DNA of 45,009 bases from Candidatus Woesearchaeota archaeon. GTDB lineage: Archaea > Nanobdellota > Nanobdellia > Woesearchaeales > ARS49. The stretch lies in NCBI GenBank assembly GCA_016188265.1, contig JACPID010000009.1, positions 1 through 45,009 of the forward strand. Direction: 5' to 3'. Positions 3 through 37,391 of the stretch are shown one piece after another. The notes beneath the pieces were generated by a model. It was given only the letters and a program-made list of their open reading frames with translations. It did not search any database and had not been told where the DNA came from. The position numbers and the translations under genes are program-made. Every line of letters starts with the position of its first letter. Position 1 is the first letter of the stretch.

Positions 3-668
3 AAAACAAGTAATACAAGGAATTTTTCCATAGAAGAACGTGAAGATAGCTACGTTTTACACAGTGTTGAGTATGCTGATGAAGTGTGTGATTTTACTTG
101 GACTAAAGAATTATTAGATGGCGGAAACACTCACACCCAAGATTATTGGGTTAAAATTACTGACCAATTGCCCGATGCAAGAGATTATTATACAAGTCTT
201 TTAGAATTATACAAAAATAAAGATGGCACTCAATCTGGCTTAGTTGAAAAGGTTCGGCAAATGTTTGCCAAAGACTTTAAAGATTATTGGATGATGACAA
301 GCACAAGAATAACTTATAAACCAAAAGGTAAAGATAAAGTAACTCATAATTATAACATCGCTTCAGAAACTAGTGTTAACATAACTTTTGTAGGACCTGA
401 CGATTACGTTAATTCTAAAAGCAGTTTTGAAGATGAAATGGAAGTTTTATTTGGAACAAGAGATTGCAAAGAAGTTAGCAAAGTTTTCAAATGGGTTACA
501 AAAAAAGCAACTTACTTGTACAGAATAAATTCTACACCACAAAACACAGACAAGCGGGCTGTTGTGCTTGGCGTCGTCAGCGACTTCGTCATCTACGCCT
601 ATGACGTCATCAGCAGCGGCAGGCCCGCTCGCGGGGTGGTCGTCGCGCGCGAAACCCGAGCTGAATAA
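3..668 (+). CDS. DGR target protein, 5'-partial; probable C-terminal CLec-like variable domain
   Basis: The frame is open from base 3 (KTSNTRNF...) through the tracked 84..668 ORF, so the true start is upstream of the window. The C-terminus (RAVVLG...RPARGV) is encoded by the VR. The fold assignment is inferred from known DGR targets. Confidence 0.9.
   Translation, partial: KTSNTRNFSIEEREDSYVLHSVEYADEVCDFTWTKELLDGGNTHTQDYWVKITDQLPDARDYYTSLLELYKNKDGTQSGLVEKVRQMFAKDFKDYWMMTSTRITYKPKGKDKVTHNYNIASETSVNITFVGPDDYVNSKSSFEDEMEVLFGTRDCKEVSKVFKWVTKKATYLYRINSTPQNTDKRAVVLGVVSDFVIYAYDVISSGRPARGVVVARETRAE
553..639 (+). repeat. DGR variable repeat (VR)
   Basis: 87 nt aligning to 1005-1097 with 16 substitutions, all opposite TR adenines (11 A>G, 5 A>T), plus a 6-nt gap in the AAC run. 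Confidence 0.95.
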
Positions 669-710
669 AATTCAGCTGGGCACATAAAAATGCAAAGCAT
701 TTTTATCGTG
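655..710 (+). promoter_or_regulatory. Tandem stem-loops 3' of the VR (putative DGR retrohoming cis element)
   Basis: CCC-G-AGCTGAAT/AAA/ATTCAGCT-GGG followed directly by CAC-ATAAAAATGC/AAA/GCATTTTTAT-C-GTG: perfect 8- and 10-bp stems with 3-nt loops. DGRs commonly need a hairpin downstream of the VR. Confidence 0.8.
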
Positions 711-808
711 AAGCTCCATGAGAAATAAAGGTACATTAGAATTGTACAAGATGAAACTATTGTATACAGGATTAATTTTTATACTACTACATTCTATGCT
801 CGTTTTAA

Positions 809-1129
809 TTCCTGTGTGTGCCGTATAGCGCACAACCTGCGCCTAGGCTTAAAGGGATCGACCACACGTCTTGCTATCAAAGCAAGAGACTGAACAAAAA
901 CCATGTTCAGCATTGCTATAAAATACAGCCACAACAACAAGTAACCAATATCTTGGTGAAAGTCTTGAAGTGGCAGTGAATTTTTAGCGGTGGCAAGGCT
1001 ACTGAGCGGGCTGTTGTGCTTGGCGTCAACAACAACAACAACTTCAACATCAACGCCAATGACAACATCAACAACAACAGGCCCGCTCGCGGAATGGGAC
1101 TATTCCCACATTTACGGCACACGCAGGAA
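809..1129 (+). ncRNA. Putative DGR template RNA enclosing the TR
   Basis: 809-825 pairs with 1113-1129 (17 bp, one G.U on the + strand). Internal hairpins at about 828-842, 869-887, 890-910 and 1095-1108. Confidence 0.65.
1005..1097 (+). repeat. DGR template repeat (TR)
   Basis: 93 nt, rich in AAC, with 12 AAY codons in the VR reading frame. Invariant non-A positions are shared with the VR. Lies just upstream of the RT. Confidence 0.95.
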
Positions 1130-1159: not shown

Positions 1160-2284
1160 TTGAAAACATACAACAACTTATGGAAAAACCTTTGCAACTT
1201 TAAACACTTACAAGAATCTTACGAACTAGCCAAAAAACGTAAATCTTGCAATCCTAACGTAATAATCTTTGATGAAAAATGGCAATTAAATCTATGCATC
1301 CTATTAAGAGAATTACGCAAAAGAATCTACAAACCACTACCACTAAGAAAATTTGTACTTCGCGACCCAAAAACAAGAGTAATCTGCGTAAGCAACTTCC
1401 GAGACAGAATAGTACACCACGCGCTAGTCAGCATTCTACAACCTATTTTCGAACCAAGATTCATCCACGACAGTTACGCAAGCAGAAAAGGCAAAGGAAC
1501 ACTCACCGCAATAAAAAGACTGGAATTATTCTTAAGACAAGTAACCAAAAATGGACAATTAGTACAGAATGCCAAAAATAATAACCAAGTAAAAGGCTAC
1601 GCATTAAAAGCAGACATAAAACAATACTTTGACACAGTAAACCACAAAATACTATTAAATCTCATCAAAAATAGAGTCAAAGACGAAAACATACTATGGC
1701 TTGCCAAAGTAATTTTAAATAATTATAACACTGGAATTGAAGGCAAAGGAATGCCTTTAGGAAACTGGACAAGCCAATTCTTTGCAAACATATACCTAAA
1801 CGAACTAGATCAATACGTAAAAAAAGAATTAAAAACAAAATACTACACAAGATACGTAGACGACTTCATAATACTGCACCAAAACAAAAACGTCCTACTA
1901 GAATACAAATCAAAAATCAACAACTTTCTACAAAACAAACTAAAACTACAACTACACCCCAACAAATGCAAAATAACACCACTAGGTCAAGGAATCACAT
2001 TCTTAGGATTCAGAATATTCTACAACTACAAAACAGTAAGACACAGAAACCTAAAAAAAATAAAAACAAAATTAAAACAAATGCTCAACCAATACAAAAA
2101 CCAAAACACAAACCCATACAAAATACTAGAACTACTACAATCATGGAACGCTTACGCAATGCACGGAAACACATACCAATTAAGAAAAAAACTCCAACAA
2201 CAAACAGAACAAGAACTGCAAAAAATAAAAGAACAAATAGAAAACAAAATAAATAATAGGACAATAGTTTCGTTTTCTAAATAG
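1160..2284 (+). CDS. DGR reverse transcriptase
   Basis: 374 aa, TTG start. RT motifs PKTRVI, FRDRIVHHAL, LKADIKQYF, GMPLGNWTSQFFAN, YVDD and FLG. No endonuclease domain. Confidence 0.95.
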   Translation: MKTYNNLWKNLCNFKHLQESYELAKKRKSCNPNVIIFDEKWQLNLCILLRELRKRIYKPLPLRKFVLRDPKTRVICVSNFRDRIVHHALVSILQPIFEPRFIHDSYASRKGKGTLTAIKRLELFLRQVTKNGQLVQNAKNNNQVKGYALKADIKQYFDTVNHKILLNLIKNRVKDENILWLAKVILNNYNTGIEGKGMPLGNWTSQFFANIYLNELDQYVKKELKTKYYTRYVDDFIILHQNKNVLLEYKSKINNFLQNKLKLQLHPNKCKITPLGQGITFLGFRIFYNYKTVRHRNLKKIKTKLKQMLNQYKNQNTNPYKILELLQSWNAYAMHGNTYQLRKKLQQQTEQELQKIKEQIENKINNRTIVSFSK

Positions 2285-2498: not shown

Positions 2499-2520
2499 AA
2501 GTATTACATTTTTGTATTAT

Positions 2521-3057
2521 ATGTTACAAAAATATAGTATATTAATGGTTTTAGAAGTTTTTTTTATAGAGCCTTCTAAAGAACATTATCTGATGAATAT
2601 TAGTAGAACTATTAATATTGCTCATACATCAGTAAAACAAAACTTAATAAAACTAGTAAAGCGTGGCTTGATAAATCAAGAGACTCAAAGAAAAGGTAAA
2701 AGAAATTTTCCAGTATACAAAGCAAATAAAGATAATAAAGAATTCAAAAGATATAAAATGATTTACAACATCACCAGTTTACTAGAGTCTAGACTAATAG
2801 ATTTCTTGGAAGAAAAAATCGCTCCAAAAGCAATAATTCTCTTCGGAAGCTACAGAAGAGGAGAAGACCTTGAAGATAGTGACATAGATATTTTTATTGA
2901 AGGAATTGAAGAAAAAATAGACTTAAAAATTTTTGAGAAAAAACTTAAAAGAAAAATACAACTACACTTCAAGAAAGATTTTAATACATATCCTAAAGAA
3001 CTTAAAAATAACATCATAAATGGCATATTATTACAAGGCTTTTTAGAAGCCTACTAA
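2521..3057 (+). CDS. HTH-fused minimal nucleotidyltransferase (MNT, antitoxin-like)
   Basis: N-terminal wHTH, then LFGSYRRGEDLEDSDIDI (GS-x10-DxD). ATG 2521 preferred over TTG 2512. Confidence 0.85.
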   Translation: MLQKYSILMVLEVFFIEPSKEHYLMNISRTINIAHTSVKQNLIKLVKRGLINQETQRKGKRNFPVYKANKDNKEFKRYKMIYNITSLLESRLIDFLEEKIAPKAIILFGSYRRGEDLEDSDIDIFIEGIEEKIDLKIFEKKLKRKIQLHFKKDFNTYPKELKNNIINGILLQGFLEAY

Positions 3058-3058
3058 A

Positions 3059-3457
3059 ATGCTGACAAAAATACAACCAGACAAGCAAAAAGCTCAAGCT
3101 TTGAAAATAATGGCAGAAATAACACTTCAAAGACTAGAAACAACAGAACTAACCAAATACCCAAGCAATACACTAACAGACTATTATGACACACTGCACA
3201 AAATAATGGAAGCAATAACATTAAGCGAAGGAATCAAATTCAAAGGTGATGGCGCACATCAAGAACTAATAGACTATATATCACAAAAACATAATTTAGG
3301 AGAGCCAACAAAACAATTCTTGCAACAAATGAGAGAATATCGCAACAGAATAAGCTACGAAGGATTCATGATCAACAAAAACTACATCACACTCAATCAA
3401 GAAAAAATCAAGAACATAATCATAACATTAAAAGAAAAACTAGAAAAAATTCTTTAA
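3059..3457 (+). CDS. HEPN-like protein paired with MNT
   Basis: 132 aa, helical, coupled to the MNT gene. Motif YRNRISYEG sits at the HEPN R-x4-6-H position. Confidence 0.7.
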   Translation: MLTKIQPDKQKAQALKIMAEITLQRLETTELTKYPSNTLTDYYDTLHKIMEAITLSEGIKFKGDGAHQELIDYISQKHNLGEPTKQFLQQMREYRNRISYEGFMINKNYITLNQEKIKNIIITLKEKLEKIL

Positions 3458-15945: not shown

Positions 15946-16923
15946 ATGAGCTATGAGAATCAAATTCTTACTTTAGTTAAAAAAAGCCCTGTACAGCCAG
16001 TACAAGTTGCAAAAGCGCTTAATACAAATAGTTTAATGGCATCTGCAATTCTTTCTGAATTATCAAGTAAAGGAAAATTAAAAGTATCTTATTTAAAAGT
16101 AGGAAGTTCTCCTTTATATTATGATCCTGAAAATCCTTCTCAACTACAAAATTTTGTTTATGCATTAAATGAAAAAGAAAAAAGAGCTTATGAGGTAATA
16201 CTACAAAAAAAAGTAATTCCTGATGATTCTCTTGATCCTCTTATGAAAGTTTGTATGAGGCAGTTAAAAGATTTTGCTCAACCTATTGAGGTTATTTTTC
16301 AAGGAAATGTAGTTTTATTTTGGAAATGGTATTTACTTAAAGATGAAGATGTAGAATCATATGCTCGGCCTTATTTTTCAAATAAAATTGAGCAAAATTC
16401 AATCTTACAGCTTGACAAATCTCTAACTAAAACACTTGATGAAACTAAAAAAGAAGAATCAATAAAAGAATCTCAAAATAAAACAAATATTTCTCTAGAA
16501 GAGCAAAAAAGTATTGAAGAAAAAAGTCTTGATTCTGTAAATAAGATAGAGGAGAATCAAGCATATAAAAAAACCATAACTAAAAAATTAGTGAAGAAAA
16601 AAAATAATTCAATAAAAGATCTTTTTTTTAAAAAAATCAATTATTATTTTTCTCAAAAACAAATAGTGATACTTAATAGCATTTCTTCAAAAAGAAATAA
16701 AGAATATGAGTTTATACTTCAAAAATTTGATGGTTTGAAAGAGAAGCATTGTTATTGTAAAGCAGTTAAGAAAAGAAAGGTTCAAGATATTGATGTAGCT
16801 CTTGCATTTGCAAATAGTAAGATTAAAAACATTTCACTTATTTTTTTATATCAAGGAGAATTAAGTAAATCAGCTAAAGTTATGCTTGAAAAATTGCCTG
16901 AAATTTTAGGTGAAAAATTATAA
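15946..16923 (+). CDS. Hypothetical protein (N-terminal HTH-like region, low-complexity linker)
   Basis: 325-aa ORF coupled to fen (TAATG overlap). Function not recognised. Confidence 0.7.
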   Translation: MSYENQILTLVKKSPVQPVQVAKALNTNSLMASAILSELSSKGKLKVSYLKVGSSPLYYDPENPSQLQNFVYALNEKEKRAYEVILQKKVIPDDSLDPLMKVCMRQLKDFAQPIEVIFQGNVVLFWKWYLLKDEDVESYARPYFSNKIEQNSILQLDKSLTKTLDETKKEESIKESQNKTNISLEEQKSIEEKSLDSVNKIEENQAYKKTITKKLVKKKNNSIKDLFFKKINYYFSQKQIVILNSISSKRNKEYEFILQKFDGLKEKHCYCKAVKKRKVQDIDVALAFANSKIKNISLIFLYQGELSKSAKVMLEKLPEILGEKL

Positions 16924-17953
16924 TGGGAGTTAACCTTCGTGATTTATTCGAAAGAAAACCGATTGATTTAGAATCACTTGCTGGTAAAAGGTTAGTTATT
17001 GATGGGTATAATATTTTATATCAGTTTCTTACAACAATTCGAGCTCCTGACGGTAGTTTGTTTACTAATAAAAAAGGCAGAGTGACTTCTCATTTAATAG
17101 GCTTATTTTCAAGAACAACTCATTTTCTTGATAAGGGTCTTTTACCAATGTTTGTATTTGATGGTGAGGTTCCAAAATTAAAGAAAAAAGAAATAGAACG
17201 TAGGGCAGAAATAAAGAGAGCGGCAAAAAAGTTATATGAACATGCAAAAAAAGAAGAAGATATAACCTCGATGTATAAATATGCTGCTAGAACTGCAATA
17301 TTAACAAGGCCTATGGTTGATGATGCTAAGGAATTATTAAGTTTATTGGGAATTCCAGTTGTTCAAGCTCCAAGTGAAGGTGAAGCACAAGCTTCTTTTA
17401 TGGTTAAACAAGGCGATGCTTGGGCGGTTATAAGCCAGGATTTTGATAGCTTGCTTTATGGAACTCCTAGGCTCATTCAAAATCTTTCAATAGTTGGAAG
17501 AAGAAAAAAGCAGGAACATTAGCGTATGAGAATATAACACCTCTTTTTATTGAACTTCAATCAAATCTTAAAAAGTTAGGTATTAATCAGGATCAGTTGA
17601 TAGTTCTTGCTATATTAGTTGGTACTGATTATCATCCTGGCGGAATTAAAGGCATAGGCCCTAAAAACGCTTTAAAACTTGTTAAAGAGTATAAACATGA
17701 TTTTTCTTCTTTATTTAAGTTTGTTAATTGGGATGAACATTGTTCAGTTGATTGGAAAGAAATATATGATCTTTTTAAGAATATGCCTGTTATTAAAGAT
17801 TATGATACAACTTTTAAATTAATTAATAAAGAAGAGATTTATAATTTTTTAATTGAAAAAAATGATTTCAGCCAAGATAGAGTTACAAAAGCCATTGAAA
17901 GCCTTATAAAAAAACAAGAAAAGAGAACTCAAAAATCTTTAGGTGATTTTTAA
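16923..17953 (+). CDS. fen: Flap endonuclease 1, interrupted by a -1 frameshift at 17504-17510
   Basis: N-part has MGV, YQFLTTIR, VFDG, APSEGEAQ and SQDFD. The -1 frame continues KAGTLAYE...LVGTDY...GIGPK...QKSLGDF (PIP box). The joined product is about 343 aa. Confidence 0.9.
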
Positions 17954-18858: not shown

Positions 18859-18867
18859 GTGCAATTT

Positions 18868-19153
18868 AAACACTAAGATTCCACTAGTGTTTCACTAGTG
18901 GTTTAGTAGTGGTTCTCAAAAAGCCACGCTTTTTGGAACGTCAGAAATAGCCACTCGCAATCTCCTTGCTTCAGCTCGGAGTAAGAGGGCGATTTCTGAG
19001 CGTGATCAAGAACACGCCACGGGCTTTAGCCCGGCGGTTCTTGACACACCGAAAATGTTTTGCATTTTCGATTGAATCTTGGTGTGCTCAAGCACTAGAA
19101 AATCGAAGATTTTCTGTGCACAGAAAATGCGTTGCATTTTCTTGTGAACCACT
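18868..19153. repeat. Modular multi-hairpin dispersed repeat, copy 1 (with extra 108-nt insert 18940-19047)
   Basis: 18868-18939 and 19048-19153 match 37202-37379 at 177/178 nt. Built from short stems with 3-nt loops. AGTGGTTCTCAA / TTGTGAACCACT inverted ends. Confidence 0.9.
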
Positions 19154-20280
19154 GGATGCTGAAACGCAGAAATAAAATCAAACTCTTTGACTTTTGTTCT
19201 ATTTTCCCTTATTGCAAAATATCCTGCTTCTGTTGCAACAGCATTTATTTCTGCACCACTTAATCCTTCCATTAGCTTAACTATTTCAGCTTCATCAATA
19301 TTTTCAAATTGCATTTTTTTAGTGTGGATTCTAAATATATCTTTTATAGCTTCTGCATTTGGCAATGAAACTTCAATAAGCCTATCTAATCTTCCAGGCC
19401 GCATTAATGCTTTATCAATAATATCTTTTCTATTTGTACACCCTATTACTTTAACATTATCTAATGGATCAAATCCATCAATTTCTGCAAGTAACTGCAT
19501 AAATGTTCTCTGTACTTCACGCTCTCCACTTGTGCCTATATCAACCCTCATTGCTGCAATAGCATCAAGTTCATCGATGAAAACAATACTTGGTGCTTTT
19601 TCTCTTGCAAGTTCAAAAATATCTCTTACAAGTTTTGCACCTTCACCAATGAATTTTTGCACAAGTTCACTGCCTACCATTTCTATAAATGTTGAATTTG
19701 TACTTCTTGCTACTGCTTTTGCAAGAAGCGTTTTTCCAGTTCCAGGAGGGCCGTATAACAAAATTCCTTTAGGCGGTTGAATGCCTACTTTTTTGAAAAG
19801 TTCAGGTTTTTTAAGTGGCAGTTCAATAACTTCTTTTATTTCCTGTTCTTGATGTTTTAATCCTCCTATGCATTCCCAAGAAACATTTGGTTTTTCAATT
19901 ATAATAAATTGTTCTACATCAAAACGTTTGCTTTTTCCTATTTTTTGAACTATTGTTAAATTTTTTTGTTCTGCTAAAGCAGAATCACCTGGTTTTACGT
20001 CTTTACAATTTTTAGATACCTCTACAAAGAATTCATTGCCATTAGGCAGCCTAATTATTGCTTTGTCATTAACTAAATCGCGAATTTCACAGGATATTAA
20101 AGGTGTTCTTTTATATTTTTCCAATTCTTTTTCTAGATTAAATATGCTTTCTTTAAGAAAACGATTTTCTTCTTCTAATCCATGAATATGTGTTGTGTAA
20201 GAATAAAATACACCATCTATAGACGTGTTTGAATTATTAGTTATATTATCTGTTTTGTCATTCGAAGACATTAAATTCAT
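19006..20280 (-). CDS. pan: Proteasome-activating nucleotidase; last 48 codons derived from the repeat
   Basis: Coiled coil plus OB domain, GPPGTGKT, FIDELD, GEREVQRT and RPGRLDR. Family similarity ends near DFISA. Confidence 0.92.
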   Translation of the reverse strand: MNLMSSNDKTDNITNNSNTSIDGVFYSYTTHIHGLEEENRFLKESIFNLEKELEKYKRTPLISCEIRDLVNDKAIIRLPNGNEFFVEVSKNCKDVKPGDSALAEQKNLTIVQKIGKSKRFDVEQFIIIEKPNVSWECIGGLKHQEQEIKEVIELPLKKPELFKKVGIQPPKGILLYGPPGTGKTLLAKAVARSTNSTFIEMVGSELVQKFIGEGAKLVRDIFELAREKAPSIVFIDELDAIAAMRVDIGTSGEREVQRTFMQLLAEIDGFDPLDNVKVIGCTNRKDIIDKALMRPGRLDRLIEVSLPNAEAIKDIFRIHTKKMQFENIDEAEIVKLMEGLSGAEINAVATEAGYFAIRENRTKVKEFDFISAFQHPVVHKKMQRIFCAQKIFDFLVLEHTKIQSKMQNIFGVSRTAGLKPVACS

Positions 20281-37158: not shown

Positions 37159-37201
37159 CAACATTAAAATTAAAGGTATTTTTATATACTTTTGGTATTT
37201 C

Positions 37202-37379
37202 AAACACTAAGATTCCACTAGTGTTTCATTAGTGGTTTAGTAGTGGTTCTCAAAAAGCCACGCTTTTTGGAACACCGAAAATGTTTTGCATTTTCGATTG
37301 AATCTTGGTGTGCTCAAGCACTAGAAAATCGAAGATTTTCTGTGCACAGAAAATGCGTTGCATTTTCTTGTGAACCACT
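37202..37379. repeat. Modular multi-hairpin dispersed repeat, copy 2
   Basis: 177/178 nt identical to copy 1 without its 108-nt insert. Intergenic between divergent genes. Confidence 0.9.
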
Positions 37380-37391
37380 TAAGATAGCCAA

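Follow-up and report, generated by a model that had tools for sequence, protein, structure and literature searches.

At the left end of a contig from a Candidatus Woesearchaeota archaeon (GenBank assembly GCA_016188265.1, contig JACPID010000009.1), a diversity-generating retroelement (DGR) carries two abutting hairpins just after the variable repeat (VR) of its target gene, and these hairpins resemble a palindromic repeat that is dispersed through the same genome. The question raised by this locus is whether the twin hairpin is a functional signal shared by the DGR and the repeat, as the initial annotation of this DNA proposed, or a copy of the repeat that came to rest in the DGR. The window analysed here is the whole contig (C8, 45,009 bp) of an archaeal genome of 0.92 Mb with 31% G+C and 98% completeness, whose genes include those for PolD, TFE, Hjc, eRF1, and aIF2-beta. 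The second answer is favored, with a probability of roughly 0.8: positions 655–713 are a solo module of a Woesearchaeota-wide palindromic superfamily, resembling repetitive extragenic palindromes and bacterial interspersed mosaic elements (REP/BIME) or MITEs (miniature inverted-repeat transposable elements), and constitute an incidental secondary insertion in the 3′ end of the target gene.

The features on which this reading depends are as follows.

3..668, + strand: DGR target gene, 3′ portion (open reading frame, ORF; the 5′ end lies beyond the contig edge)
553..639, + strand: variable repeat 1 (VR1; alignment to the template repeat)
655..713, + strand: inserted twin-hairpin module (folds, covariance-model match, and a clean alignment gap)
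666..668, + strand: TAA stop codon newly supplied to the target gene; it sits at the tip of hairpin 1 (ORF)
714..733, + strand: remnant of the native post-VR junction, a weakened short hairpin and AAAGGT (alignments A2 and A3; in relatives it follows GAAA-ATT)
1005..1097, + strand: template repeat (TR; alignment with VR1 and VR2)

Kinship of the Twin Hairpin to a Dispersed Repeat

The geometry that the initial annotation had ascribed to 655–712 and to the repeat copies was reproduced in its letters, coordinates, and fold. Hairpin 1 (655–680) has a CCC/GGG base of 3 bp, a bulged G on the 5′ side, and a stem of 8 bp closed by the loop AAA. In hairpin 2 (681–710), the base is CAC/GTG, the stem measures 10 bp, the loop is again AAA, and the bulge, a C, lies on the 3′ side; AA follows. 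The segment 650–716 folds with −18.3 kcal/mol as DNA (z −7.0) and −25.3 kcal/mol as RNA (z −6.4), and 0 of 200 shuffles were as stable in either calculation. When aligned with the dispersed repeat, hairpin 2 is identical in 24 of 32 columns, while hairpin 1 is identical in 16 of 28 columns of an alignment that is out of structural register. The kinship of hairpin 1 to the repeat is therefore one of shape rather than of sequence, while that of hairpin 2 extends to sequence.

A covariance model (R1) was trained on 10 dispersed modules with the DGR copy excluded and was run on the genome and its relatives. In the 0.92-Mb genome, it recovered 655–710 on the + strand at full length (44.4 bits, E 1.5e-7), and the reverse strand of the DGR site yielded only a partial match of 22 bits. 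The DGR copy conforms to the R1 architecture throughout, with a 3-bp base, 5′ bulge, 8-bp stem, and 3-nt loop in the first hairpin, and CAC, a 9–10-bp stem, a 3-nt loop, a 3′ bulge, and GTG in the second. Since a model built without the DGR copy scores 655–710 at 44.4 bits, the DGR hairpins are true members of the twin-hairpin repeat family, and the structural kinship first proposed from the letters alone is borne out. The common core AAAATGC-N3-GCATTTT occurs 15 times in the genome; 12 of these occurrences belong to the repeat and 1 to the DGR, and the other 2 lie outside both. Among the families of Rfam 15, only the RT-16 motif reaches its gathering score in the window, and nothing better than E 0.3, far short of the gathering score, was found over the twin hairpin or the repeat.

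Insertion of the Module into the Target Gene

The module begins 15 nt past the last base common to VR and TR and is absent on the TR side. It occupies 59 nt (655–713) where relatives have 3 nt, ATT. In alignment A2, both flanks at VR1 match the junction that follows a second VR of the same genome (VR2; contig C13, 89331–89430) as well as 7 of 7 related post-VR junctions, and the module is present in none of them. The seven junctions come from G028, G004 (two loci), G037, G024, G040, and G009; G024 is an unpublished genome, and the result is the same without its row. All eight module-free junctions share a GC-rich segment ending in GAAA, a short hairpin within a few bases of it, and AAAGGT or GAAGGT. 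G028 belongs to a different genus, and its VR adjoins TR and the reverse transcriptase (RT) gene, which makes it the positional orthologue of the VR1 cassette. When window positions 600–1010 are aligned with G028 (alignment A3), the mean identity is 77% and a clean 56-column gap falls exactly at the module.

The insertion has altered the encoded protein. The last four codons and the stop of the target gene (TRAE*) are encoded by the module, such that the protein ends in ...ARETRAE* in the window, as opposed to ...ARENSS* in the C13 paralogue or ...NSP* elsewhere. A set of 16 related VRs was picked by adenine-biased mismatches, and in none of the 16 do the 130 nt following the VR hold an R1 match at family level (E≤1e-3); locus L088 comes closest, with a weak 19-bit match located 93 nt beyond its VR. 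More distant relatives, in our reading of the search output, carry GC-rich hairpins with GAA or GCA triloops after their VRs. Because VR2 lacks the module and yet differs from TR almost only at adenines, diversification does not depend on the module. These junction sequences show the module at VR1 to be a secondary insertion in the 3′ end of the target gene, including the polarity of the event.

The Repeat Family in the Genome and across the Order

Two mosaic copies of the repeat lie in the window, and one of them reaches into a conserved gene.

18865..19153, + strand: family-A mosaic copy, with a twin module at 19093–19146 (R1, 78.5 bits)
37199..37385, + strand: family-A mosaic copy, with twin modules at 37247–37300 and 37319–37372 (R1, 53 and 78.5 bits)
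19006..20280, − strand: PAN-like AAA ATPase, the only one of the genome, its last ~50 residues read from the family-A repeat

The copies at 19093–19148 and 37319–37374 are identical to each other, as the initial annotation had stated, but its count of two was too low, as the genome holds about 14 copies and at least five families. The repeat is a modular mosaic whose ~14 copies are 98–100% identical, and several of them lie at contig ends. Within it sits an optional GC-rich module of 106 nt (~18940–19045), which stands out in a genome of 31% G+C, recurs in repeat copies on contigs C3 and C11 and partly on C10, and has no Rfam match at gathering score.

Perfect hairpins that abut each other are found 35 times in the genome versus 2–3 times in three Markov shuffles. 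Of these pairs, 24 follow one design with a 6-nt spacer between the hairpins, and they comprise at least five unrelated stem sequences, designated families A–E. In an alignment of 10 modules, 11 of 23 base pairs show changes on both sides, a count that is inflated because the aligned modules came from a hairpin scan. The distribution of the family reaches far beyond this genome. Exact copies of the 19-mer core of hairpin 2 (686–704) exist in dozens of genomes across the order, and a match with E≤0.01 was obtained in 66 of 400 sampled genomes (five of the 66 unpublished), versus ~0.06 exact copies expected by composition. All 22 modules whose gene context was checked lie between conserved coding regions; three of them overlap approximate ORF calls, one of these being the repeat-encoded PAN tail. 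With respect to orientation, 14 of 20 modules point in the same direction as the downstream gene, which is not significant (p 0.12).

Several observations speak for mobility. The C-terminus of PAN, which reads ...DY-x-KMFG in seven orthologues, has been replaced in the window by ~50 residues encoded on the antisense strand of the repeat, and no remnant of the native C-terminus was seen to the left of the repeat in three frames. The copy at 19093 has no hit at the orthologous PAN loci of 28 out of 28 relatives (one of them, G008, unpublished). On a metagenome contig, a match to 652–692 with 4 differences is embedded in unrelated flanks on both sides. In addition, a relative of hairpin 1 (88% over 40 nt), accompanied by a second hairpin of its own, lies in frame within a 330-aa ORF of genomes G353 and G449, and these copies are a palindromic repeat turned coding sequence. 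They are located at ~1501–1540 of the respective loci (L208 and L210), in a Lys/Glu-rich linker of the ORF.

Association with Variable Repeats, Reverse Transcriptase, and Transposases

The initial annotation had suggested that one structure is recognized in both the DGR and the mobile repeat, either because the DGR co-opted the repeat as its retrohoming signal or because the repeats use the DGR machinery. The part of this claim that concerns a common kind of structure holds, and both functional links fail. Against co-option speak VR2, the 7 of 7 related junctions, and the G028 orthologue, all of which lack the module. Enrichment of modules 3′ of VRs was found neither in the genome itself nor, as described above, at the 16 related VRs: the 13-mer of the initiation of mutagenic homing (IMH) site is present within 120 nt upstream at 1 of 29 module loci of the genome, and the other 28 show at least 5 mismatches.

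No association with the DGR RT emerged either. Among 100 relatives (including the unpublished G024, G034, and G046), modules (E≤1e-3) were detected in 60 and an RT match (E≤1e-10) in 22; both were present in 16, the RT only in 6, modules only in 44, and neither in 34. The resulting Fisher p of 0.22 still overstates the association, as the relatives are not independent of each other. Of the 78 relatives in which this RT has no match at that threshold, 44 carry modules, including some that are rich in them, such as G076 (one contig, 27 matches), G006 (99% complete, 54 matches), and G061 (54 matches). This distribution, together with the 28 of 29 modules that lack an IMH, speaks against use of the DGR machinery by the repeats.

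A link to HUH-type (TnpA) transposases was not found either. Y1_Tnp (PF01797) was not detected in this genome (98% complete), and modules occur in 16 of 24 Y1-positive and 44 of 76 Y1-negative relatives (p 0.48). The transposase traces of the genome are a DDE fragment that stays sub-threshold and a single rve gene, which is broken, and no TnpB-type domain is present. Modules show no association with VRs, with this RT, or with Y1 transposases. Hits are spread genome-wide with no link to VRs, and orthologous DGR targets lack the module, the two outcomes that had been named beforehand as speaking for an incidental insertion. As for how readily chance would bring a module to this place, the probability that at least 1 of 29 modules falls in the 520-nt non-coding stretch of the DGR is ~0.14, given ~98 kb of non-coding DNA in the genome, and incidental placement is plausible.

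The module has landed behind the GC-rich post-IMH segment and ahead of the short native hairpin, replacing 3 nt, and in doing so has altered the last residues of the protein and supplied its new stop codon. The family is proposed to spread in DNA form, probably as hairpins of single-stranded DNA on which an enzyme acts in trans, one that this assembly does not encode. In agreement with this, terminal inverted repeats and target-site duplications are not visible, copies are near-identical, some copies lie at contig ends, and copies are absent at orthologous sites. For the DGR, the insertion was presumably neutral or merely tolerated, perhaps because hairpin 1 sits where the native hairpin formerly began.

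Architecture of the DGR Locus

The remaining parts of the DGR are listed below, and the spacer between VR1 and TR holds one more insertion.

622..640, + strand: IMH-like GC-rich end of VR1 (CGGGGT in VR1, CGGAAT in TR)
734..767, + strand: second window-specific insertion, 34 nt, in the VR-to-TR spacer, with two small palindromes (A3, relative to G028)
805..1007, + strand: RT-16 RNA motif (Rfam RF03019), directly upstream of TR (76.9 bits; gathering score 50)
1160..2284, + strand: DGR reverse transcriptase (the single RVT_1 match in the whole genome)

VR1 and TR are separated by 22 differences, comprising 16 substitutions, nearly all at TR adenines, and a 6-nt gap. The 6 nt by which VR1 is shorter than TR fall inside an AAC repeat tract, and VR2 is 3 nt shorter than TR. 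In both VRs the shortening falls at AAC codon repeats, and such whole-codon differences in length between VR and TR are unusual for DGRs. The target protein has no sequence match in Pfam or PDB. The RT-16 motif is also present at 14 of 20 related RT loci. In the DUSEL4 DGRs of Nanoarchaeota, hairpins with GRA triloops lie inside the target gene together with a TGGGGT/TGGAAT IMH pair (Paul et al. 2015, PMC4372165), and the CGGGGT/CGGAAT pair of the window fits this pattern.

The 34-nt insertion contains an ATG that starts a short hydrophobic ORF (751–828). Directly after the RT gene (2512–3457), a nucleotidyltransferase gene (NTP_transf_2) and a small adjacent ORF resemble an MNT/HEPN-type pair more than an Avd, and no Avd-like gene was recognized next to the RT. 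In G098, Y1_Tnp matches lie within ~1.5 kb of DGR RT genes on contigs C146 and C153 (L086 and L100). Further along the window, the XPG/FEN1 N and I domains end with a 199-aa ORF (16923–17522), which is followed by a 118-aa ORF (17597–17953) without a Pfam match; the pair may represent a split or interrupted FEN1.

Metagenome contigs covering the locus were available from four runs (X1–X4) of one study, listed as DNA and possibly derived from the source sample. Each of the four has contigs that contain the module. The contigs of X1 and X2 are interrupted within VR1 (~575–614), which is covered by low-depth pieces only; for both X3 and X4, VR1 is bridged by one contig without change, although contigs are too little to judge the variability of VR1. 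The X3 and X4 contigs carry T691C, a strain variant by which hairpin 2 loses one base pair, and no change is reported at the partner position 699. A loose contig end after 654 was considered as an empty VR1 site and rejected, as it matches the VR2 junction and is paralogous. A joint in X4 (648>838) was disregarded, as its 28-nt side has 85% likeness.

Modules within DGR RNA and Competing Explanations

A number of observations weigh against the reading of 655–713 as an incidental insertion. Neither a clear terminal inverted repeat nor a target-site duplication was found in the aligned flanks, which were judged by eye only, and the genome holds no intact transposase detectable with PF01797, PF07282, PF01609, or PF00665. 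The module also stands in sense orientation and starts 15 nt beyond the point where VR/TR homology ends, which is the canonical site of a DGR hairpin, and such a placement is less likely by chance than one "somewhere in the spacer." Finally, a module of the same architecture is conserved and covaries in the RNA upstream of TR in four other DGR loci. At least two encounters between DGR cassettes and modules have thus taken place, and this leaves a modest probability for a functional relation.

The four loci emerged when R1 was run on 29 + 86 related RT loci, a set in which some DNA is possibly included twice. An RT search of genome contigs gave 21 loci, ~10 of them archaeal, and six were taken to R1; L103, L105, and L106 were left out as the same DNA as G056, G007, and G037, and the RT alignment was made without L108 and L111, whose translations contain stop codons. 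Family-level matches were obtained in L090 (759–815), L097 (2740–2789), L107 (2245–2296), and L135 (2121–2173), with L090 corresponding to the unpublished G046 and L097 to G040. The four modules lie 205–260 nt upstream of the RT start and ~80 nt upstream of TR, at one homologous position in an RT-16/RT-11-like RNA; their flanks are conserved, the base triplets and bulges are common to all, and the stems differ by compensatory changes. Because they sit at one homologous position, they are counted as one acquisition and not four, and no enrichment is claimed. Templated correction within DNA palindromes could maintain pairing without selection. It is conceivable that Woesearchaeota DGR cassettes repeatedly capture modules because these are useful, with hairpin 1 serving as the post-VR hairpin at VR1, the module serving elsewhere as an RNA domain 5′ of TR, and a shared host or DGR factor recognizing the fold in the retroelement and in the repeats; this scenario is doubtful at present.

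An exaptation at VR1 is also unlikely. It would accept the insertion as secondary but hold that hairpin 1, or the pair, now acts as the retrohoming signal in place of the weakened native hairpin. The position and sense orientation of the module suit such a role, its presence in contigs of all four metagenome runs (one study, possibly the source sample) agrees with it, and the insertion has cut the native hairpin from ~5 bp to ~3 bp by our reading of A2 and A3. For BPP-1, an inverted repeat downstream of VR is reported to be of critical importance to efficient retrohoming (PMC4372165). Nevertheless, VR2 and all seven related junctions work without a module, the AAA loops of the module depart from the GRA/GRNA loops that the same source gives for archaeal and phage DGR hairpins (PMC4372165), and T691C lacks a compensating change at 699.

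A different possibility is that the twin hairpin is not selfish at all but a host cis-element of RNA or DNA, such as a transcript 3′-end, insulator, or protein-binding element, which has been recruited at many intergenic sites and which here separates the target transcript from the DGR RNA. The occurrence of the identical core 19-mer in dozens of genomes (66 of 400 at E≤0.01, with ~0.06 expected), the changes on both sides at 11 of 23 pairs across families, the location of 22 of 22 context-checked modules between conserved coding regions, and the covariation in place within DGR RNA at four loci would all fit this role. However, the sequences showing covariation were chosen by a hairpin scan, which inflates the pairing, and the orientation bias expected of a cis-element is not significant (14 of 20, p 0.12). 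Modules are furthermore absent at orthologous sites (the VR1 junctions and PAN) and overwrite conserved gene ends, as at the C-terminus of PAN, and a cis-element of this kind is accordingly quite improbable. That the dispersed repeats were spread by the DGR RT, for which resemblance alone and the modules in or near 5 DGR loci could be cited, is hardly credible given that 44 of 78 relatives in which this RT has no match at E≤1e-10 carry modules (some with dozens of matches), that copies of 98–100% identity do not suggest adenine mutagenesis, and that 28 of 29 modules lack adjoining IMH or TR homology.

Relation to Known Palindromic Repeats and DGR Hairpins

REP/BIME (REPIN) sequences of bacteria are short intergenic palindromes with many near-identical copies, arranged in hairpin mosaics and showing compensatory changes between families. 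The family in the window resembles them in being palindromic, mostly intergenic, and present as near-identical copies in mosaics of several hairpins, with compensatory changes between its families. It differs from them in its archaeal host, in the lack of a RAYT/Y1 HUH gene in the genome and of a Y1 association among the 100 relatives, and in its fixed two-hairpin unit with single-base bulges. The Rickettsia palindromic elements and the Correia elements of Neisseria are palindromic repeats that enter gene ends or insert in frame and become coding. The new C-terminus and stop codon of the DGR target, the PAN tail, and the in-frame copies of G353 and G449 are comparable to these, although the sequences and hosts are unrelated.

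Insertion of such repeats into DGR loci has a parallel in Thiohalocapsa PB-PSB1, where MITE-like hairpin repeats have inserted into the DGR loci (bioRxiv 10.1101/2023.09.22.558884). In both cases, a hairpin-forming, non-autonomous repeat has landed in a DGR cassette. The Thiohalocapsa repeats, as described there, match the terminal repeats of identifiable insertion sequences (IS) and degrade DGR parts, whereas no parent IS was found for the repeat of the window and the cassette looks intact. The module also recalls the post-VR hairpins of BPP-1 and DUSEL4 (PMC4372165): like them, it is an inverted repeat positioned just 3′ of the IMH and lacking on the TR side. The known hairpins, which are situated in the target gene and conserved within their DGR group, have GRNA or GRA loops (PMC4372165), while the pair in the window is confined to its lineage, carries AAA loops, and represents one copy of a repeat that is dispersed. 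In a MITE census, a Woesearchaeal genome ranks among the densest archaeal MITE carriers (PMC11602168). The titles and abstracts searched contain no description of the twin-hairpin family or of a link between archaeal DGRs and such a repeat, although the supplements of PMC11602168 may include this family.

Implications

The twin-hairpin family is an uncatalogued, order-wide palindromic repeat. Its presence at VR1 illustrates that proximity to a VR does not by itself make a hairpin a DGR signal, and that in repeat-rich DPANN genomes such hairpins need to be checked against orthologous junctions. The lead that remains comes from another sublineage, in which the same module belongs to the conserved portion of a DGR RNA. 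For the family as a whole, whose members rewrite gene ends across this archaeal order and for which no mobiliser is known, a usable covariance model is now at hand.

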